Assembly: GCF_041886205.1 (NCBI RefSeq)
Contig: NZ_CP169029.1
Source of the DNA: Escherichia coli
Lineage (GTDB): Bacteria > Pseudomonadota > Gammaproteobacteria > Enterobacterales > Enterobacteriaceae
Strand: one strand, 5' to 3'
Length of the DNA: 64,000 bases
Positions within the stretch are counted from its first letter, which is position 1. Each line of letters begins with the position of its first letter. This document shows positions 5,683 through 39,336 of the stretch, one piece after another. The notes below the pieces were generated by a model. It searched no databases, was not told the origin of the DNA, and saw only the letters and a program-made list of their open reading frames with translations. The position numbers and the translations under genes are program-made.

Positions 5683-8432
<2,750 letters not shown>

Positions 8433-8435
8433 GGA

Positions 8436-9083
8436 ATGGGTAAGATGAACCATCAGGATGAATTGCCGTTAGCGAAAGTCAGCGAAGTTGACGAGGCGAA
8501 GCGGCAATGGTTGCAGGGGATGCGTCACCCCGTTGATACGGTAACCGAACCAGAACCTGCTGAAATCCTGGCTGAGTTCATTCGCCAGCATTCTGCGGCT
8601 GGGCAGCTGGTGGCGCGCGCCGTGTTTCTCTCGCCACCCTATTTGGTTGCAGAAGAGGAACTGTCAGTTTTGCTGGAAAGCATTAAGCAGAACGGAGACT
8701 ACGCGGATATCGCTTGTTTGACGGGAAGCAAGGATGATTACTATTACTCAACGCAGGCCATGAGTGAAAACTACGCGGCGATGTCTTTGCAAGTTGTGGA
8801 GCAGGACATTTGTCGCGCCATTGCACACGCCGTTCGTTTTGAGTGCCAGACGTATCCTCGTCCTTACAAAGTCGCCATGCTGATGCAAGCGCCATATTAC
8901 TTCCAGGAAGCGCAGATTGAAGCCGCGATCGCCGCGATGGATGTTGCACCTGAATATGCCGATATACGGCAGGTGGAGTCATCGACGGCGGTGTTGTACT
9001 TGTTTAGCGAGCGATTTATGACCTATGGCAAGGCTTATGGCTTATGCGAATGGTTCGAGGTAGAGCAGTTTCAGAACCCCTGA
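8436..9083 (+). CDS. ydhW: Uncharacterised protein YdhW
   Basis: 215-aa ORF starting 4 bp after the ydhV stop; no recognisable motif; assigned by position in the conserved ydhYVWXUT order. Confidence 0.75.
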   Translation: MGKMNHQDELPLAKVSEVDEAKRQWLQGMRHPVDTVTEPEPAEILAEFIRQHSAAGQLVARAVFLSPPYLVAEEELSVLLESIKQNGDYADIACLTGSKDDYYYSTQAMSENYAAMSLQVVEQDICRAIAHAVRFECQTYPRPYKVAMLMQAPYYFQEAQIEAAIAAMDVAPEYADIRQVESSTAVLYLFSERFMTYGKAYGLCEWFEVEQFQNP

Positions 9084-9146
9084 AATTTCAGGGAGATGTC
9101 ATGGATAGGGTGGACAGTTGCAGCCACTGCATTAGGGGATAATCAG

Positions 9147-9815
9147 ATGTCCTTCACTCGACGCAAATTTGTTCTGGGGATGGGAACAGTAATCTTTTTT
9201 ACTGGTTCTGCGTCTTCTCTGTTAGCGAACACGAGGCAAGAAAAGGAAGTTCGGTATGCCATGATTCATGACGAGTCACGGTGCAATGGCTGTAATATTT
9301 GCGCCCGCGCATGCCGTAAAACTAACCACGTCCCCGCTCAGGGAAGCCGTTTATCGATAGCACACATTCCAGTCACCGATAACGACAACGAAACGCAGTA
9401 TCACTTTTTTCGCCAGTCATGTCAGCACTGCGAAGATGCTCCGTGCATCGACGTTTGCCCGACGGGGGCATCGTGGCGTGATGAGCAGGGGATCGTGCGG
9501 GTAGAAAAATCGCAGTGCATCGGCTGCAGTTATTGCATTGGCGCTTGTCCGTACCAGGTTCGCTACCTTAACCCTGTCACTAAAGTGGCAGATAAATGTG
9601 ATTTCTGCGCTGAGTCCCGGCTGGCAAAAGGCTTTCCGCCCATTTGCGTCAGCGCTTGTCCGGAACACGCATTGATCTTTGGTCGCGAAGATAGCCCAGA
9701 AATTCAGGCGTGGTTGCAGGAAAATAAATACTATCAATATCAGCTACCTGGTGCCGGGAAACCGCATCTGTATCGCCGGTTCGGTCAACATTTGATTAAA
9801 AAGGAAAATGTATGA
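9147..9815 (+). CDS. ydhX: 4Fe-4S ferredoxin-type protein YdhX with twin-arginine (Tat) signal
   Basis: ORF 9096..9815 trimmed to MSFTRRKFVLGMGTV (222 aa); RRKFV Tat motif; several Cys clusters (CNGCNICARAC, CIGCSYCIGACP). Confidence 0.82.
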   Translation: MSFTRRKFVLGMGTVIFFTGSASSLLANTRQEKEVRYAMIHDESRCNGCNICARACRKTNHVPAQGSRLSIAHIPVTDNDNETQYHFFRQSCQHCEDAPCIDVCPTGASWRDEQGIVRVEKSQCIGCSYCIGACPYQVRYLNPVTKVADKCDFCAESRLAKGFPPICVSACPEHALIFGREDSPEIQAWLQENKYYQYQLPGAGKPHLYRRFGQHLIKKENV

Positions 9816-10597
9816 ACCCGTCGCAACATGCTGAACAGTTTCAGAGCCAGTTAGCGAACTATGTGCCACAGTTCACTCCCGAATTTTGGCCGGTGTGGTT
9901 GATCATTGCCGGAGTATTGCTGGTTGGGATGTGGTTGGTGCTGGGGCTGCACGCCTTGCTTCGTGCTCGTGGCGTGAAGAAATCAGCCACCGATCATGGT
10001 GAGAAGATTTATCTTTACAGCAAAGCGGTCAGATTATGGCACTGGTCGAATGCGTTACTCTTTGTATTGTTGCTGGCAAGTGGGCTGATAAATCACTTTG
10101 CGCTGGTGGGCGCAACTGCGGTCAAAAGTCTGGTTGCGTTGCATGAAGTTTGCGGATTTTTGTTACTCGCATGCTGGCTCGGCTTTGTGCTGATCAATGC
10201 TGTTGGGGGTAATGGTCACCACTATCGCATTCGTCGTCAGGGGTGGCTGGAACGAGCGGCAAAACAAACGCGATTTTATTTGTTTGGCATTATGCAGGGG
10301 GAAGAACATCCTTTCCCGGCAACAACCCAGTCTAAATTTAATCCCTTACAGCAGGTCGCCTATGTTGGTGTCATGTATGGATTGCTGCCGTTGTTACTAT
10401 TGACGGGGCTGCTGTGTCTCTATCCGCAAGCCGTGGGAGATGTGTTTCCTGGCGTAAGATACTGGTTATTGCAGGCGCATTTTGCTCTGGCATTTATAAG
10501 CCTCTTTTTTATCTTCGGTCATCTTTATCTTTGCACCACGGGGCGTACGCCACACGAAACCTTTAAAAGCATGGTCGATGGCTATCACCGGCACTAA
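9812..10597 (+). CDS. ydhU: Integral membrane protein YdhU (PhsC/NrfD-like quinol-interacting subunit)
   Basis: 261-aa hydrophobic ORF overlapping the ydhX stop by 4 bp. Confidence 0.8.
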   Translation: MNPSQHAEQFQSQLANYVPQFTPEFWPVWLIIAGVLLVGMWLVLGLHALLRARGVKKSATDHGEKIYLYSKAVRLWHWSNALLFVLLLASGLINHFALVGATAVKSLVALHEVCGFLLLACWLGFVLINAVGGNGHHYRIRRQGWLERAAKQTRFYLFGIMQGEEHPFPATTQSKFNPLQQVAYVGVMYGLLPLLLLTGLLCLYPQAVGDVFPGVRYWLLQAHFALAFISLFFIFGHLYLCTTGRTPHETFKSMVDGYHRH

Positions 10598-10600
10598 CGA

Positions 10601-11413
10601 ATGATCATTACACGAGCAGACCTGCGAGAATGGCGTATCGGAGCGGTGATGTATCGCTGGTTCCTGCGCCATTTCCCACGCGGCGGTAGTTATGCCGATA
10701 TTCATCATGCACTGATTGAGGAAGGATATACGGACTGGGCGGAGAGTCTGGTTGAGTATGCGTGGAAAAAATGGCTGGCGGATGAAAACTTCGCGCATCA
10801 GGAAGTTTCCTCTATGCAAAAACTGGCCACAGACCCCGGAGAGATACCATTTTGCAGTCAGTTTGCCCGCAGCGACGATCATGCTCGCATCGGCTGTTGT
10901 GAGGATAACGCCCGAATCGCAACCGCTGGGTATGCCGCGCAAATTGCCAGTATGGGTTATAGCGTGCGGATTGGAAGTGTCGGCTTTAACAGTCACATTG
11001 GCAGCTCCGGTGAACGCGCACGGGTTGCTGTAACCGGTAATTCTTCGCGGATAAGCAGCGCTGGAGATAGTAGTCGGATTGCGAACACCGGAATGCGAGT
11101 ACGCGTTTGTACATTGGGTGAACGGTGTCATGTCGCCAGTAATGGTGACCTGGCGCAAATCGCCAGCTTTGGCGCAAACGCCAGAATTGCCAACAGCGGC
11201 GACAATGTACACATCATTGCCAGCGGTGAAAATTCAACGGTTGTGAGCACGGGCGTGGTCGACTCAATTATTCTCGGGCCAGGGGGAAGCGCCGCACTGG
11301 CATATCATGACGGCGAAAGAGTTCGCTTCGCCGTCGCCATTGAAGGTGAAAACAATATTCGAGCCGGAGTCCGCTATCGTCTTAATGAACAGCATCAGTT
11401 TGTTGAGTGCTGA
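10601..11413 (+). CDS. ydhT: Uncharacterised protein YdhT, last gene of the ydhYVWXUT cluster
   Basis: 270-aa ORF; central portion is a run of about 14 nine-residue repeats (see repeat feature). Confidence 0.8.
   Translation: MIITRADLREWRIGAVMYRWFLRHFPRGGSYADIHHALIEEGYTDWAESLVEYAWKKWLADENFAHQEVSSMQKLATDPGEIPFCSQFARSDDHARIGCCEDNARIATAGYAAQIASMGYSVRIGSVGFNSHIGSSGERARVAVTGNSSRISSAGDSSRIANTGMRVRVCTLGERCHVASNGDLAQIASFGANARIANSGDNVHIIASGENSTVVSTGVVDSIILGPGGSAALAYHDGERVRFAVAIEGENNIRAGVRYRLNEQHQFVEC
10877..11281 (+). repeat. In-frame 27-bp (9-residue) tandem periodicity within ydhT
   Basis: Translation gives successive 9-mers DHARIGCCE/DNARIATAG/YAAQIASMG/YSVRIGSVG/FNSHIGSSG/ERARVAVTG/NSSRISSAG/DSSRIANTG/MRVRVCTLG/ERCHVASNG/DLAQIASFG/ANARIANSG/DNVHIIASG/ENSTVVSTG with conserved [RHQ]-[IV] at positions 4-5 and Gly at position 9. 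Confidence 0.8.
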
Positions 11414-11424
11414 TAGCTTTACCT

Positions 11425-13029
11425 TTAATCAAACGAAAGACGCCGACGTGCACGGGATGCAGGTTTTACGACCGCCCGAGCCATCGCCTCACCAATTTCT
11501 GCACATGCCGTAAGTCCCTGAACGAAAGGCTGGTCGTGCATCAACCAGGGCAACGCGCCGAACGCTACGCGTCCACGAATATCTTCGGGTTGCTGTAACG
11601 TATAATCTTCGCCAACATCAGGGATTTCATCCCCTGTTTTCTGTAATTGCTCGCGTAGCCCAGGGAAAGGAATATCTTTCACTTTAAGCGGACGCTGTCC
11701 GCGGGCATCAATAAAAACGTCAAACGAGTAGCTGTTGTCTTCCGTTTTCAGGACGGTGCGCGACTCATTAATTTCCATTTCGTAGTCTTCACCGAGGGCG
11801 AGAATATGAATGATCCCCGCTTCACGTAAGGCCAGCAGCCGACGAATAGACTCTGAAGGGATTGCCGCATAATTATCGATAAAAACCCGGGTAAGGCCTT
11901 TACTGAACCGTTTATGGTCGTGTTCATTCAGATGTGGAACAATTTCCTGTACGGCTTCATGCAGGCGCAGAATGACATAACGCCAGGGAACAGTATGTTT
12001 TTCTCGTTTATTGCGTTCGACTTCCTGGAGATTTTTTTCTGCCCAGTCAAATGGGTCGCGTTGTTTGCGCTCGGCAAACCAGGCTTGAGCAAAGGAATCG
12101 ACATTCAGGCTCTCTAAGGCTATGCGTTGGCTCCAGTCTGGATCAGCAAACTTGATTTCCTCTACTATCAATCTAAATACCCGATCCAAAAGGCCCTCTT
12201 CGCCTTTTTGAATCTCAGCATTTAATGCCTGATCGGTGACAATGTGTAAGGACTCGTAGGGAATAGGGCAATAGAAATCGGCTTCGGGTAAAATACCCGT
12301 GCGCGACATCAACGTGATATTTAGCTTTTCACTTGCGTTATCGCGGTGAAAAACGACGTGTTGTTTATCATCTTCAATGAACGAACCATGCTGAATAGCC
12401 ACTGCCATTGCCGCATCCAGTCCGCTCAAGGATGTTCCCATAATACCCACGTTACACGCATCGACCTTTGCTTCCATCAGGCCTGACCACGGGCTGGGAA
12501 AATACGTTCGGGTTGCTTCTTCTTCATCAGGCCAGACGTGACCCGTGGCAATCACCGCTAAATCAAACGTCTCGCTGGGTAAACCCTGATTTGTAGCGAG
12601 CATGACGCCAGCATTTGTAATTTGCAGATCGGTAACCTGGCATGATTCATAAACAGCCACTGCAAATTTTTGCTTTCGTGCCTGGTCTACTAATCGTAAA
12701 AATTGATCGCGGAAATATTCGCCCAGCAGAATTCGCGGTAAAAACTGACGATCGTGCAAGGTTTCTTTTTTAACGCCATAACGCTGGAGATGGCTGGCTT
12801 CTTGCTTTTGTAGCCATTCGAGATACGTACAATTAATCGGCGGTATTTCAATACTGGCAATATTTGCCAGCATCATTTTTGAGTTTTCCTCATCACTGTA
12901 TGGCATCCCGACACCGGCCTCGTCAGCCTGCTCGAAGATAGAAATAGAAAGTGGAGTTTGTTGCTGTAGAAGCGAGAATAAGGTGTAGATCCCCGTAGGC
13001 CCGGCACCCACAATAGCAATTTTTTTCAT
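11425..13029 (-). CDS. ydhS: FAD/NAD(P)-binding protein YdhS
   Basis: 534-aa ORF with N-terminal dinucleotide-binding motif MKKIAIVGAGPTGIYTLFSLL; convergent with ydhT with an 11-bp gap. Confidence 0.85.
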   Translation of the reverse strand: MKKIAIVGAGPTGIYTLFSLLQQQTPLSISIFEQADEAGVGMPYSDEENSKMMLANIASIEIPPINCTYLEWLQKQEASHLQRYGVKKETLHDRQFLPRILLGEYFRDQFLRLVDQARKQKFAVAVYESCQVTDLQITNAGVMLATNQGLPSETFDLAVIATGHVWPDEEEATRTYFPSPWSGLMEAKVDACNVGIMGTSLSGLDAAMAVAIQHGSFIEDDKQHVVFHRDNASEKLNITLMSRTGILPEADFYCPIPYESLHIVTDQALNAEIQKGEEGLLDRVFRLIVEEIKFADPDWSQRIALESLNVDSFAQAWFAERKQRDPFDWAEKNLQEVERNKREKHTVPWRYVILRLHEAVQEIVPHLNEHDHKRFSKGLTRVFIDNYAAIPSESIRRLLALREAGIIHILALGEDYEMEINESRTVLKTEDNSYSFDVFIDARGQRPLKVKDIPFPGLREQLQKTGDEIPDVGEDYTLQQPEDIRGRVAFGALPWLMHDQPFVQGLTACAEIGEAMARAVVKPASRARRRLSFD

Positions 13030-13154
13030 TGTTACTTACCTGTACGCATTCTTTCGAATTTAGTGTTATCAGATAAGTTTGGTTGAGATTTTTAGAATTT
13101 GAGAAATTTCAGACAGGGATGAAAAGGGCGCTAACCGCCCTTGATTAAATTCTG

Positions 13155-13373
13155 TCAGGCGAGTTTTGCCTGATTGATTTGACTCAGTGGCTCATTGACA
13201 TCGAAAACTTTGGCGACAACTTCCTCAACGCCGAGATTTTTAAGTCGGGCAGTATGTTTTTCCAGATAGGCAAGGGCGCTTTTTTCATCAGTAAAAAGAT
13301 AGATCCCACCGGCTTCGTGGTTCTTTTCACTTTCTGTCCATACCTTCCACAGAAAACCAGGTTCCTGATTAAT
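13155..13373 (-). pseudogene. ydhR: ydhR, 3' fragment (codons about 31-101) separated from its 5' end by the IS insertion
   Basis: Reverse-complement translation reads ..[71 protein letters not shown]-stop; the frame is broken at 13373/13374 by the IS terminal repeat. Confidence 0.85.
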
Positions 13374-13415
13374 TGAACCGCCCCGGGTTTCCTGGAGAGT
13401 GTTTTATCTGTGAAC

Positions 13416-14306
13416 TCAGGCTGCCAGATCATCGTTTCCGATGGAAGCATAATAAGCTTTTTCTGCTTCTGCCGGAGGAGTATGGCCCAGCCTTTCCAGC
13501 AATCGTCGATTGTTATACCAGTCCACCCACGTGAGTGTGGCCAGTTCCACTTCTGCACGGTTTTTCCAGCTCTTACGGTGTATTACCTCCGCTTTGTAAA
13601 GACCATTGATGCTCTCCGCCATCGCGTTGTCATACGAGTCGCCTGTACTTCCTGTTGATGCCAGTAATCCGGCTTCCTTAAGCCGCTGTGTGTAGGCCAG
13701 CGATACATACTGAGAACCTTTATCACTGTGATGGACCGTGCCGGACGGTCGACGGGCCCATAACGCCTGCTCCAGTGCATCCAGCACGAATGTCGTTTCC
13801 ATGGACGATGAGACCCGCCACCCCACGATGTATCCGGCAAACACATCAATGATGAACGCCACATAGACGAAGCCCCGCCATGTGCTGACGTAAGTAAAAT
13901 CAGCCACCCACAGCTGGTCAGGTCGTTCTGCCACGAACTGACGGTTTACGCGGTCGCCTGCGGCAACGGCTTTCCGGCTGATGGTCGTACGGACCTTTTT
14001 ACCCCGGAGAACACCGGCAAGTCCCATAACCGCCATGAGACGTGCCACAGTGCATCTGGCCACTCTGATACCTTCCCGTAACAACTGACGCCAGACTTTA
14101 CGCACACCGTATACCTTGTGATTTTCATCGTATACGCGCTGTATCTCTTTCTTCAGCCAGTCATCGCGCTGCGCACGGGCACTGCGTTTATCCGGATGAT
14201 GTCGCTGTTGCTGACAGTGGTAATACGTTGACGGGGCAATATGCAGTTCGCTGCATAGCGGTCCGACCCCGTACTGCTCACGCAGCTTATCCAGCAGTGG
14301 CATCAT
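13416..14306 (-). CDS. IS3-family transposase OrfB (DDE catalytic domain)
   Basis: 296-aa [33 protein letters not shown].. with an integrase/DDE-type core; overlaps orfA in the -1 frame. Confidence 0.9.
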
Positions 14307-14629
14307 TTTTTCCAGAGGCGGTCGAACTCCGCCTTCGCAAAATAAGCGGAAGCCTGGCGAAGGATATCGTTACTGCGGCGCAGTTCACGATTTTCACGTT
14401 CCAGCTCTTTCAGACGCTGACGTTCAGCGGTGGTGAGCCCTCCATCACCGCCCCCGGTATCCCGCTCATGCTGGCGAACCCAGACACGCAGAGTCTCCGG
14501 CGTACAGCCAATCTTTGGAGCAATGGAACAAATTGTCGCCCATTGTGAGTCATATTCGCTCTGACTTTCCAGAACCATACGGACTGCCCGTTGACGGACT
14601 TCGGGGGAAAAACGAGTATTTTTAGTCAT
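14303..14629 (-). CDS. IS3-family transposase OrfA (helix-turn-helix and leucine-zipper part)
   Basis: 108-aa [64 protein letters not shown]..., ending ..RLWKK at an A6 slippery run immediately before the orfB start. Confidence 0.9.
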
Positions 14630-14683
14630 CCTGTTTACCTCTTTCTCAGGAAGTTTAGTCTCCAGGATTCCCGGGGCGGTTCA

Positions 14684-21674: not shown

Positions 21675-22607
21675 ATGTGGTCAGAATATTCACTCGAAGT
21701 TGTTGATGCGGTAGCGCGTAATGGTAGTTTTAGCGCTGCGGCACAGGAGCTGCATCGCGTTCCTTCTGCGGTCAGCTATACCGTGCGTCAGCTGGAAGAG
21801 TGGCTGGCGGTGCCGCTCTTTGAAAGACGGCACCGTGATGTGGAACTGACCGCTGCCGGGGCGTGGTTTCTCAAAGAAGGGCGCTCTGTTGTCAAAAAAA
21901 TGCAGATCACCCGCCAGCAATGTCAGCAGATAGCGAACGGCTGGCGCGGTCAGTTAGCTATCGCAGTGGATAATATTGTCAGGCCAGAACGTACACGGCA
22001 GATGATCGTTGATTTTTATCGCCATTTTGACGACGTCGAACTTCTGGTCTTTCAGGAAGTGTTTAACGGTGTCTGGGATGCGCTTTCCGATGGGCGCGTG
22101 GAACTGGCGATTGGCGCAACACGCGCGATTCCGGTAGGCGGTCGTTATGCCTTCCGGGATATGGGGATGCTAAGCTGGAGTTGCGTTGTTGCCAGCCACC
22201 ACCCGCTGGCGTTGATGGATGGCCCGTTCAGCGATGATACGTTGCGCAACTGGCCGTCGTTGGTGCGCGAAGACACCTCGCGAACGCTACCTAAACGTAT
22301 TACCTGGTTGCTGGATAACCAAAAAAGAGTTGTCGTGCCTGACTGGGAATCATCGGCAACCTGTATCTCGGCAGGATTATGCATAGGGATGGTGCCAACA
22401 CATTTCGCCAAACCGTGGCTTAATGAGGGGAAGTGGGTAGCACTTGAATTGGAGAACCCCTTCCCGGATTCGGCATGTTGTCTGACATGGCAGCAAAATG
22501 ATATGTCGCCTGCGTTAACCTGGCTGCTTGAGTATCTCGGCGATAGTGAGACGCTGAATAAGGAGTGGCTGCGGGAGCCGGAAGAGACTCCCGCAACGGG
22601 TGATTAA
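21675..22607 (+). CDS. punR: LysR-family transcriptional regulator PunR (YdhB)
   Basis: 310-aa ORF with N-terminal wHTH ([32 protein letters not shown]); divergent from punC. Confidence 0.85.
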
Positions 22608-23629
22608 CGACGATAGTCGCGGAACGGGCCGTCAGCCACGGAGCGGCGTTCAATCAAACGCGGATGCACTTCAATGGACTGCGGTTCTTCACGTTTGTTG
22701 ACGATACGATCCAACAGCATGTTGAACGCTGTTTCACCCAGCGAATCTTTTGGCTGATGGATCGTGGTCAGCGCCGGCGTAAAATAGCGCGCGTTGCGCA
22801 CGTTATCATAACCGATCAGCGAAACATCCTGCGGGACGCGCAGGCCCATTTCATCAGCAGCACAAAGTGCGCCCATTGCCATGATATCGCCACCACAGAA
22901 GACGGCAGTAGGGCGATGCGGCTGCGACAGGATTTGCTGCATGGCGCGATAACCAGATTCGGGTTCAAAGTCACCCTGCACAATCCAGCTTTCCGGCACC
23001 TTTATCATCGCTTCTTCCATCGCCTTCATAAAACCGGCAAGGCGGCCTGCGCCGGTGTTACGTTCCAGCGGGCCGGGGATGACGCCGATTTCGCGGTGGC
23101 CGCGTTCAATCAGATAACGCCCGGCCATGTAGCCGCCTTCGAACGCGTTATCAATGACCGCATCGGTGAAGTCAGCTTTTGCTTCACCCCAGTCCATGAC
23201 CACCATTGGGATATGGCGATACTCTTCCAGCATCGCCAGCAACGGCTCTGGGTACTCAGAACACATCACCAGCAGACCATCGACGCGTTTTTGCGCCATC
23301 ATCGACAGATAAGCCCGCTGTTTCTCAAGATTGTTCCACGCATTACCCAGAATCAGGGTGTAACCTTTCTGGAAGCAATTTTTTTCAACCGCTTCAATGA
23401 TCTCGGCAAAATAGGCCGCTTCGCTGCTGGTCGCCAGCAAACCGATAGACTTGGTGTGGTTAACCTTCAGGCTACGCGCCACCGCGCTAGGGGAGTAGTG
23501 TAATTCTTTAATCGCTGCCCACACGGCGTTGCGCGTTTCTTCAGCGACGAAACGTGTTTTGTTGATCACGTGTGACACAGTTGTAGTGGAAACGTTTGCT
23601 CGTTTCGCTACATCTTTTATTGTTGCCAT
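22604..23629 (-). CDS. purR: Purine repressor PurR (LacI family)
   Basis: 341-aa [60 protein letters not shown].. matching PurR. Confidence 0.95.
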
Positions 23630-36801: not shown

Positions 36802-37323
36802 ATGAAACGTTTTAGTCTGGCTATTCTGGCGCTGGTTGTTGCAACCGGCGCACAAGCTGCCAGTGAAAAAGTCGAGATGAACCTCGTCACGTCGCAAGGG
36901 GTAGGGCAGTCAATTGGTAGCGTCACCATTACTGAAACCGATAAAGGTCTGGAGTTTTCGCCCGATCTGAAAGCATTACCCCCCGGTGAACATGGCTTCC
37001 ATATTCATGCCAAAGGAAGCTGCCAGCCAGCCACCAAAGATGGCAAAGCCAGCGCCGCGGAATCCGCAGGCGGGCATCTTGATCCACAAAATACCGGTAA
37101 ACATGAAGGGCCAGAAGGTGCCGGGCATTTAGGCGATCTGCCTGCACTGGTCGTCAATAATGACGGCAAAGCTACCGATGCCGTCATCGCGCCTCGTCTG
37201 AAATCACTGGATGAAATCAAAGACAAAGCGCTGATGGTCCACGTTGGCGGCGATAATATGTCCGATCAACCTAAACCGCTGGGCGGTGGCGGTGAACGCT
37301 ATGCCTGTGGTGTAATTAAGTAA
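36802..37323 (+). CDS. sodC: Periplasmic superoxide dismutase [Cu-Zn]
   Basis: ORF trimmed to MKRFSLAILALVVATGAQA (signal peptide) after a GGAGG Shine-Dalgarno; 173 aa with Cu/Zn-SOD His ligands (HGFHIH). Confidence 0.92.
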   Translation: MKRFSLAILALVVATGAQAASEKVEMNLVTSQGVGQSIGSVTITETDKGLEFSPDLKALPPGEHGFHIHAKGSCQPATKDGKASAAESAGGHLDPQNTGKHEGPEGAGHLGDLPALVVNNDGKATDAVIAPRLKSLDEIKDKALMVHVGGDNMSDQPKPLGGGGERYACGVIK

Positions 37324-39336
37324 TTAAGAGGCCAGCGTACCTTGCGGTGGTGCTTGCTCAAGTTGCGAAAGCGAGCAGTACAGCCGCCAGACAATTGCCG
37401 CCAGCTCACGGGCGGCAGGTTGATGATGACGGGCAAGGCTGTCGCAAATCCGCTGTAATTCTTCAAGTGTGGCCGCCAGTGATTTTTGCTGAACGCCACG
37501 CTCACTCATCACTCCCCGCAACAGTGAAATACAGTTATCCCGTACTCGCGATAACGGATCGGAACGCGATTCCCAGTCGCGCAATTGCCAGACAACATGA
37601 GAACAGTTCAGCAGCACTACACCCCAGCGTAATAACCAACGGCGAGCCAGCGCATCCTGGCTGTTACTCAACTGACTGACGTGATGATAAGTGAGCGATT
37701 CAAATTCGCTTTCACTCAGTGTTGGATGGCGGCTTAGCTGATCGACAAAATCCCGGCGCAGCGCGCGAATATGGCGGCGGCTTTTACGAGCATCCGATCC
37801 TGGACGCAGAATGGCGAACGCTAACCACGCCAACGCGACGCCAACGATTTTTGCCAGATTATCGTTAAGAAAATCAGCAAAATCATACATCGGGGGATTA
37901 GTGACAGCGATAAAAGAACCCATAAAAACAATCAGTTGCCCCCACAATGCGGCAAATTTTGGCATCTGCAATTTAAGAAGCTGCATTGTCGCCAGCAGTG
38001 GAAAGAGAAACAGTAAAAATTGCCACAGATCGCTAATCTGGACCATCAGACCAAATTTGACCACAAAGCTGAATAGCGAAAGTAACACCAGCGTGCGCAT
38101 CAGAAGTGACAACGACTTAAACGGTGCTGCGACGGCGGAGTAGAGTACGCAGCTAATTGCTGCCAGCGTTAATGCATTGGCACCGGCATCCCATTGCGAA
38201 GCAATACTCCATGCGCCAATCATCATCAACGTACAAAATGTACGCAGCCCGCTCCACATAGCTTCGGCGTTATCGGTATGACGAGCCAGGCCGGATGTCC
38301 GTGGGAGTCTGGTATGATCATCTACACCGCTTTGCAGACGATGTAATTCCTGACTACTTTGCAGATAAAGGCGGCAAAAATAACGTAGTCGCTGCCAGAA
38401 GGCGACGTGCCGATAGTCGGCGACGTTGGTCGGGCGTAGCGGGGCGATAATACGTGCGACGGTGTAAACATCTGTTTGCGAACTGGCGAGCGCCGTCAGC
38501 AACTGTTCGAGAATTTCTCGTGTGGCACCTGGCGGTGAGGGCCAGTTGAGCAACATACGTCGCAGGCTGGAGATGACACTGGTCATACGTAATTGCTGGT
38601 GGAGCAGCGCATTAAGGCGCGCGTTTTGCTGGCGAAAACGATAGTGGCTCCAGAAAGCCTGGATACGCAGCAAATTCATGGTCAGTATCTGCCCAATCAC
38701 CCCTTCATGTGCTGCACGAATGGCATCGGTTGTTTCAGGCTGCCAGAGTAAACTGGCATGTTCAAGTAGTCGGGCGTGCATGTTTTTCAATGCGGTTAAA
38801 AGGGCTGTAGCATCGGAACTGCTAGGCAGGATCATCATCATCATGCCGCCGCACAAAATGCCGACAATCACCTCGCAAACGCGCGCCTGAGCGATATCCC
38901 ACAGCTGGCTGGCCTCAGTAATATTAACCATCGGAAAGGCGATGATGGCAGCCGTGTAGCCCGCCAGTTGAAATGCATACGCGACGTTATTCGTGAAGTG
39001 CGCACAGGCCCAGGTACAAAAGCCAAGCCACGCCGACATGCTCAATAGAAAAAACCACGGCTCATTGAGCGTATGCCCGGCAAGAAGCAGTGCCGCAATG
39101 GCTCCGAGCAAACTGCCAGCGATGCGTCCGAGGCTTTTGCTGATAACACCGCCAACGGTGGGAAAGCTAACCACTGCAGCCGAGGTCATCGCCCAATAGG
39201 GTTCATCCAGATTTAAATAATAGGCAACCGTCAGCGCCAGACACATGGCAATGGTATTGCGTAACGCATAACGCCATTGCGCCAGCGTGGCCCTGAACCA
39301 GGGCAAATTGCGCAAGGACCATGACGATGCGTTCAT
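37324..39336 (-). CDS. ydhK: FUSC/AaeB-family inner-membrane efflux protein YdhK
   Basis: 670-aa ORF with two hydrophobic bundles; start overlaps the ydhJ stop. Confidence 0.85.

Follow-up and report, generated by a model that had tools for sequence, protein, structure and literature searches.

The ydhT/ydhS junction of Escherichia coli is probably an ordinary, weakly insulated boundary between two convergent transcription units

We analyzed the boundary between ydhT and ydhS, two convergent genes found in a stretch of 64,000 nucleotides of Escherichia coli (contig NZ_CP169029.1, assembly GCF_041886205.1). We call this whole stretch the window, and all positions refer to it unless MG1655 is named. 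At this boundary two unrelated transcription units meet tail to tail in what is probably an ordinary, compact arrangement, with a weak and asymmetric insulation between them. Expression is weak in both units, and a terminator and Rho shield ydhS from the transcription of its neighbor ydhR. So, the overlap between the two transcripts, which should be low-level, is most likely tolerated as a side effect of the compact genome and does not serve regulation.

The arrangement itself is already known. It is annotated in thousands of genomes, the transcript overlap is published, and the phenomenon is textbook knowledge. The junction matters little, tight convergent genes without good terminators being a well-known feature of E. 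coli whose transcript overlaps have been catalogued across the genome.

Anatomy of the junction

The names ydhT and ydhS come from the RefSeq annotation of strain 6EVA, which is 100% identical over this stretch. The coordinates of the ydh operon are those of the RefSeq annotation of 6EVA shifted by +1600. The initial annotation, made from the sequence alone, described the genes as convergent, with stop codons 11 bp apart. The sequence, the list of open reading frames, and the annotations of 6EVA and MG1655 all agree with this description. Table 1 gives the coordinates of the features discussed here.

Table 1. Coordinates of the ydhT/ydhS junction and of the related features in the window.
Feature	Position	Strand	Description
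FNR box TTGATCGTTATCAA	5468..5481		Upstream of ydhY; marks the ydhYVWXUT promoter
ydhY-ydhV-ydhW-ydhX-ydhU(phsC)-ydhT operon	5683..11413	+	6EVA RefSeq annotation, MG1655 annotation agrees; source of the plus-strand transcription that reaches the junction
ydhT coding sequence	10601..11413	+	270 aa; stop codon TGA at 11411-11413
Untranslated RNA beyond ydhS, antisense to ydhT	10970..11360	-	C/G ratio 1.3-1.56 at 11360-11290, up to 2.0 at 11177-10970
Inverted repeat GACGGCGAA...TTCGCCGTC	11309..11335		Inside ydhT; G+C-rich hairpin of 9-10 bp on either strand, no U tract
Weak hairpin GCUAUCGUCUUAAUGAACAGCAUCAGUUUGUUGAGUGCUGAUAGC	11373..11417	+	Formed by 38 nt at the end of ydhT, its stop codon and 4 bases of the spacer; candidate leaky intrinsic terminator
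Spacer TAGCTTTACCT	11414..11424		11 bp between the two stop codons
Untranslated RNA beyond ydhT, antisense to the 3' end of ydhS	11414..11620	+	Mildly C>G (C/G ratio 1.3-1.6); plausible Rho loading region
ydhS coding sequence	11425..13029	-	534 aa, FAD/NAD(P)-binding protein; stop codon TAA, complement of 11425-11427
ydhR intrinsic terminator GGGCGGTTAGCGCCC-TTTTCA	13120..13141	-	Upstream of ydhS; -12.0 kcal/mol, z score -4.0

Both genes have a back-up stop codon that uses the spacer. The TGA of ydhT is followed by an in-frame TAG (11411..11416). Likewise, ydhS ends on the minus strand with TAA-AGG-TAA (11419..11427).

In MG1655, ydhS is at 1747131-1748735 (+) and ydhT at 1748747-1749559 (-), and the 11-bp gap between them corresponds to 1748736-1748746. 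MG1655 and the window do not differ in the spacer or in the final 60 nt of ydhT. Over the 140 bp around the junction there are two substitutions, both of them within ydhS. Because the junction is identical, the data published for MG1655 are applicable to the window.

The transcription of the plus strand starts from a promoter with an FNR box. Its sequence has one exact match in the window, where 0.01 are expected. It is the ydhY FNR site given in Table S6 of Myers et al. 2013 (PLoS Genet, PMC3688515).

Frequency and conservation of the layout

The layout is almost universal in the species. Of the 5426 complete E. coli genomes, 5421 match bases 10601-13029. A probe of 140 bp that spans the junction matches 5417 of the 5426. 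We inspected 14 probe matches taken across the ranking. Thirteen were ungapped and full-length, and the weakest covers 122 of the 140 bases.

We also compared the gap with those of other convergent pairs. The sample consisted of 24 pairs from RefSeq annotation, 11 of them syntenic with the window and 13 from two arbitrary 50-kb stretches of MG1655. Their gaps extend from -4 to 281 bp (median 38.5 bp), and in 9 of the 24 pairs the gap does not exceed 11 bp. Two pairs of the window are tighter than ydhT/ydhS. More precisely, punR (21675..22607, +) shares 4 bp (22604..22607) with purR (22604..23629, -), and sodC (+, ending at 37323) meets ydhK (37324..39336, -) with 0 bp between them. It means that a convergent gap of 11 bp is nothing beyond the ordinary for E. 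coli. With about a third of the sampled pairs equally tight or tighter, a small convergent gap is not noteworthy by itself.

Outside the species we surveyed the ydhT locus in one genome per species, which gave 12 loci. Residues 1-270 of YdhT were aligned by tblastn in these 12 Escherichia and Citrobacter loci. Four Escherichia lineages (L003-L006) have ydhS opposite to ydhT at exactly 11 bp, with a YdhS identity of 86-95%. The spacer bases that differ from those of the window are 2 of 11 in L003 and 4-5 of 11 in L004-L006. We considered a sharply conserved element in the spacer and dropped it, since 4-5 of the 11 bases vary in these more distant Escherichia lineages.

The partner of ydhT is different in other loci. 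In Escherichia albertii (L007, 3814..3876), ydhS is missing beside ydhT, and ydhR faces ydhT at 63 bp. In Citrobacter amalonaticus (L008, 3811..3814), the facing gene encodes a permease of an ATP-binding cassette (ABC) transporter at 4 bp. Another Citrobacter group (L012, 3958..4016) presents a metallo-beta-lactamase (MBL)-fold hydrolase gene at 59 bp. Finally, Citrobacter sedlakii (L011, 4170..4256) has YdhS reduced to a remnant of residues 505-533. From this distribution, ydhS seems to be an ancestral gene that has been lost more than once. In all the loci surveyed, the end of the ydh operon meets some convergent gene, and the partner varies. An interchangeable convergent partner argues against a specific regulatory coupling of ydhT with ydhS.

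Terminator candidates on the two strands

A scan for consensus terminators found none in the spacer or across it. The same scan also missed the ydhR terminator, which is verified by Term-seq. For this reason we wrote our own scan of both strands. It accepts hairpins no longer than 50 nt when the next 8 nt contain at least 4-5 U.

On the ydhT side, the best site in our scan was the weak hairpin at 11373..11417. Its folding energy is -15.4 kcal/mol (z score = -3.0), and that of its complement on the minus strand is -9.8 kcal/mol. On its 3' side there is a U-rich tail, UUUACCUUUAAU, made of the spacer and of 11425-11429, where the ydhS stop codon is read in complement. This tail scores 3.87, compared with 4.30 for the ydhR terminator mapped by Term-seq. 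The hairpin has 18 pairs (8 A-U, 4 G·U, and 6 G-C) and two bulges, and the U tract is broken (UUUACCUUU).

This hairpin is not unusual for the window. It ranks 83rd by stability among 1202 distinct hairpin-plus-U sites. Sites as stable occur about once per 1.5 kb per strand, and they are mostly intragenic. Moreover, ribosomes should hinder its folding, as its 5' arm and loop are translated. In 13 orthologous sequences only 68% of the cells are paired, and the outer five pairs are broken everywhere beyond E. coli proper. We tried this hairpin as a conserved terminator and dropped it, with no compensatory changes and a structure not kept among the 13 orthologues. A G+C-rich stem-loop followed by a U tract, as in a canonical intrinsic terminator, was found on neither strand of the junction.

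On the ydhS side, we found no hairpin-plus-U site better than -9 kcal/mol on the minus strand from 11470 to 10850, about 570 nt past ydhS. As there is no terminator-like site for about 570 nt, ydhS transcripts must extend antisense into ydhT.

The initial annotation held that the junction has no terminator, that no hairpin fits between the stop codons, and that each transcript must read into the other gene. These statements hold in part. No canonical terminator was detected by the consensus scan, but the weak hairpin with its U-rich tail had been overlooked. The 11 nt are indeed too short for a hairpin, but a terminator may borrow the end of a coding sequence and need not fit in the spacer. 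The read-through is forced for ydhS, but ydhT transcripts could be released at the ydhS stop codon. Consequently, terminator searches should cover the flanking coding sequences as well as the spacer.

The inverted repeat inside ydhT is 90-116 nt beyond the ydhS stop codon on the minus strand. It folds with -15.7 kcal/mol on this strand (z score about -3.5) and with -15.1 kcal/mol on the plus strand (z score about -3.2). Among 13 Escherichia and Citrobacter sequences, 90.6% of the cells are paired. The changes are one-sided only, and compensatory pairs were not observed. The conserved DGE...FAV codons can explain this pairing. Once ydhS transcripts have been terminated by Rho and trimmed, the stem could shield their 3' ends.

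From its base composition, the untranslated RNA at 10970..11360 on the minus strand is a plausible zone of Rho loading and termination. Within 450 nt of the stop codons, the C/G ratio reaches 1.3-1.6 after ydhT and 1.3-2.0 after ydhS, and the minus strand has a stretch of up to 3.3 further into ydhT. Ratios of at least 1.3 occur in 22% of all 78-nt segments, so the values of the junction are unexceptional and only suggestive of Rho loading.

Other searches for structure at the junction were negative. Folding 300 nt per strand gave z scores of +0.9 and -1.2, with no unusual global structure. Likewise, an Rfam search of 10000-14500 with a permissive E-value found no RNA family at the junction, and its only match was the frameshift pseudoknot of a neighboring IS3 element.

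Published RNA evidence

The pair ydhS-ydhT is one of the 165 convergent excludons of MG1655 in Table 1 of the ExcludonFinder study (Sanmartin et al., NAR 2025, PMC12288877). This supports the transcript overlap that the initial annotation had predicted. To enter the catalogue, the transcripts of a pair must overlap in 50% or more of the 58 RNA-seq samples of MG1655, as judged by coverage thresholds (PMC12288877). The pairs purR-punR and ydhK-sodC are also catalogued there as convergent excludons (PMC12288877). Of the 9 sampled pairs whose gap does not exceed 11 bp, 8 appear in the catalogue. The excludon call is thus nearly automatic for such gaps, and it is no proof of regulation.

The initial annotation had also proposed an antisense interference between the ydh operon and ydhS. 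We found no support for it in the absence of Term-seq ends at the junction, in antisense reads at background level, or in the lack of ydhS from the FNR and oxygen tables.

The Term-seq data of Adams et al. 2021 (eLife, PMC7815308) cover three aerobic conditions. No 3' end is reported between MG1655 1747040 and 1754895 (fumD/ydhZ), and the operon is poorly expressed in these conditions (PMC7815308). The 3' end at 1747040 is the ydhR terminator. The same work gives a Rho region at MG1655 1747130, one base before the ydhS start (13030..13031 in the window), with a score of 87, which places it among the strongest in that work. The reads upstream and downstream of this point were 7492 and 18 in untreated cells, and 6215 and 1305 with bicyclomycin (PMC7815308). 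With about 18 reads, ydhS is barely transcribed in lysogeny broth (LB). The ydhR terminator and Rho keep the strong transcription of ydhR out of ydhS, which limits the RNA of the ydhS strand at the junction. It is curious that a bicyclomycin-sensitive read-through occurs between ydhR and ydhS, where an intrinsic terminator is also present.

Huang et al. 2020 (mBio, PMC7373196, Table S1c) give sense and antisense values for the wild type. In reads per million (RPM), they are 49.2 and 8.0 for ydhS, and 3.9 and 2.6 for ydhT. From these values, the antisense level is 5.0 RPM per kb for ydhS and 3.2 for ydhT, the level of thrA, talB, or yaaA. We had taken the values as a candidate for decisive evidence of read-through and dropped them, since they match the background of unrelated genes. 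The antisense on the ydhS strand decreases from 3.2 RPM per kb in ydhT to 1.3 in ydhU and 0.5 in ydhW, which fits a diffuse termination.

The same study also captured double-stranded RNA with p19. In ydhX (9147..9815) it reaches up to 218 RPM, and the antisense in total RNA is low over ydhX and ydhS alike.

The ydhYVWXUT operon is activated by FNR, and ydhY, ydhV, and ydhW are 2-4 fold higher in anaerobic conditions (Myers 2013, PMC3688515). The genes ydhU and ydhT (9812..11413) appear as oxygen-dependent only in the table of the hns/stpA mutant (PMC3688515). Being listed only there, they suggest that little transcription of the operon arrives at the junction in the wild type. This pattern also hints at a polarity linked to H-NS or Rho within the operon, before the junction.

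Proposed course of transcription and evidence against it

From these data, the events at the junction could be as follows. Transcription of ydhYVWXUT on the plus strand would meet the weak, non-conserved hairpin and the U-rich spacer. A fraction of the polymerases would stop approximately at the ydhS stop codon. The remaining RNA of the plus strand would continue untranslated and antisense to ydhS, and Rho would end it diffusely. In the other direction, ydhS transcripts would enter ydhT in antisense, where Rho may end them on untranslated RNA with C>G. They would possibly be trimmed back to the stem at 11309..11335. We infer both the partial termination and the role of Rho.

Several points weigh against this reading. 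First, the length of 11 bp is unchanged across the Escherichia lineages, which could reflect a constraint, but 11 bp is also a small target for insertions and deletions. Second, Adams et al. give no Rho region at the junction, and the approximately 18 reads over ydhS are too few to detect one (PMC7815308). The mapped 3' ends come from aerobic conditions with a poorly expressed operon, and the termination sites and the Rho dependence proposed here are putative. Third, the double-stranded RNA captured by p19 amounts to 25-376 RPM over ydhS and only 2.7-6.4 RPM over ydhT (PMC7373196). It follows that some antisense RNA does pair with the ydhS messenger RNA. Finally, ydhS is absent from the differential-expression tables of wild type versus fnr mutant and of aerobic versus anaerobic growth (PMC3688515). 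This absence is weak negative evidence on whether ydhS is regulated.

Alternative explanations

The junction might be a functional convergent excludon. FNR-driven read-through of ydhYVWXUT in anaerobic conditions would suppress ydhS by polymerase collision and RNase III, and vice versa. The anaerobic oxidoreductase system and the flavoprotein would then be expressed in a mutually exclusive way. The catalogue entry (PMC12288877) and the p19 capture over ydhS (PMC7373196) agree with this explanation. Neither strand has a strong terminator, and the pair and its spacing are retained in E. coli and in the cryptic Escherichia clades. However, ydhS is unlisted in the fnr and oxygen tables that include ydhY, ydhV, and ydhW (PMC3688515), and the antisense reads are no higher than background. 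The pairing is also dispensable, because E. albertii and Citrobacter have ydhT without ydhS. The excludon label carries little information, given the 8 of 9 tight gaps that were catalogued. In addition, little wild-type transcription seems to reach the junction, as the hns/stpA table indicates for ydhU and ydhT. We consider a functional excludon unlikely. If interference in cis were true, the pair would be another example of an excludon and a small clue to the uncharacterised YdhYVWXUT oxidoreductase system and to the flavoprotein YdhS.

Another explanation is the collision type of bidirectional terminator (Ju et al. 2019; Wang et al. 2022). Head-on collisions of polymerases would then be positioned by a stem-loop at the boundary. 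Neither Rho nor a U tract would be needed, and the two transcripts would have defined ends that overlap. In favor of this are the convergence of the genes and the stem-loop of the boundary, which can form on the plus strand (-15.4 kcal/mol) and on the minus strand (-9.8 kcal/mol). Terminators of this class are said to look different from intrinsic ones and to control hundreds of genes in E. coli (bioRxiv 10.1101/2022.10.23.513370). On the other hand, the mechanism requires frequent polymerases from both sides together with co-directional trailing ones, and both units here are weakly transcribed. Term-seq gives no defined 3' ends at the site (PMC7815308), and the stem-loop at 11373..11417 is not conserved. 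A terminator of this type thus appears quite unlikely for this junction.

The two units might instead be effectively insulated. The hairpin and its U tail would stop most transcripts of the ydh operon, and ydhS transcripts would be rare and rapidly terminated. The excludon call would be an artefact of the coverage threshold at a gap as small as 11 bp. The tail score of the spacer is near that of the ydhR terminator. Downstream of the block by Rho and the terminator, ydhS has approximately 18 reads in LB (PMC7815308). The antisense is at background, and a pair this tight can hardly escape being called an excludon. Nevertheless, the hairpin is rich in A/U and G·U pairs and carries two bulges. 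Translation extends as far as its 3' arm, so ribosomes would probably hinder its folding. Sites of equal strength are found every 1.5 kb by chance. Moreover, ydhS lacks any hairpin, so a complete ydhS messenger RNA unavoidably overlaps ydhT. We regard an effective insulation as very unlikely.

Finally, an oxygen-linked variant of the excludon, in which anaerobic FNR-driven read-through past the leaky hairpin silences ydhS in cis, aerobic transcription of ydhS damps the distal ydh genes, and the 11-bp spacing is kept to guarantee the overlap, is in our view highly improbable. Weak, asymmetric insulation with a tolerated overlap is our preferred reading. The anatomy, the frequency and conservation of the layout, and its catalogue entry are observations, and the lack of regulation is an inference.

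Insertion element in ydhR

An insertion sequence (IS) of the IS3 family, IS629/IS1203-like, is inserted in ydhR. It has 1310 bp (13374..14683, minus strand) and a target duplication of 3 bp. Its two reading frames are orfA (14303..14629) and orfB (13416..14306). The Rfam match mentioned above is the ALIL pseudoknot (RF01497) at 14232..14348 (-), with 120 bits and E = 7e-32. It is a programmed -1 frameshift signal at the overlap of orfA and orfB.

The element has the orientation of ydhS, whose start is found 345 bp downstream of it. Outward transcription from it could alter the expression of ydhS, but the intervening ydhR terminator is intact. None of the 5426 complete E. coli genomes shares the exact junction between the element and ydhR, which may point to a Shigella or an unusual lineage as the source.

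Comparison with known systems

Compared with a canonical intrinsic terminator, such as that of ydhR (13120-13141), the junction is alike in having a hairpin followed by a U-rich tail. It is unlike in its long bulged stem, which overlaps translated sequence.

With the collision-type terminators, the junction shares the convergence of the genes and a stem-loop that can form on two strands. It differs in its weak expression, its unmapped ends, and its unconserved stem.

The convergent excludons (PMC12288877) have tail-to-tail genes, a short distance, and overlapping transcript boundaries, and ydhS-ydhT is itself included among them. In the strict sense the case is different. The pair is catalogued by coverage only, whereas reciprocal expression and RNase III dependence are the stricter hallmarks.

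Compared with the Rho-dependent systems, the junction differs in that no bicyclomycin-sensitive region is reported there and its C/G ratios are ordinary. The strong Rho region is 1.6 kb off, at the ydhS start. As in the antisense transcription suppressed by Rho (Dar & Sorek 2018, PMC6061677; Adams 2021, PMC7815308), the junction has untranslated and mildly C>G RNA past each stop codon, and the stem at 11309-11335 could mark a trimmed 3' end like those of Rho-dependent transcripts.

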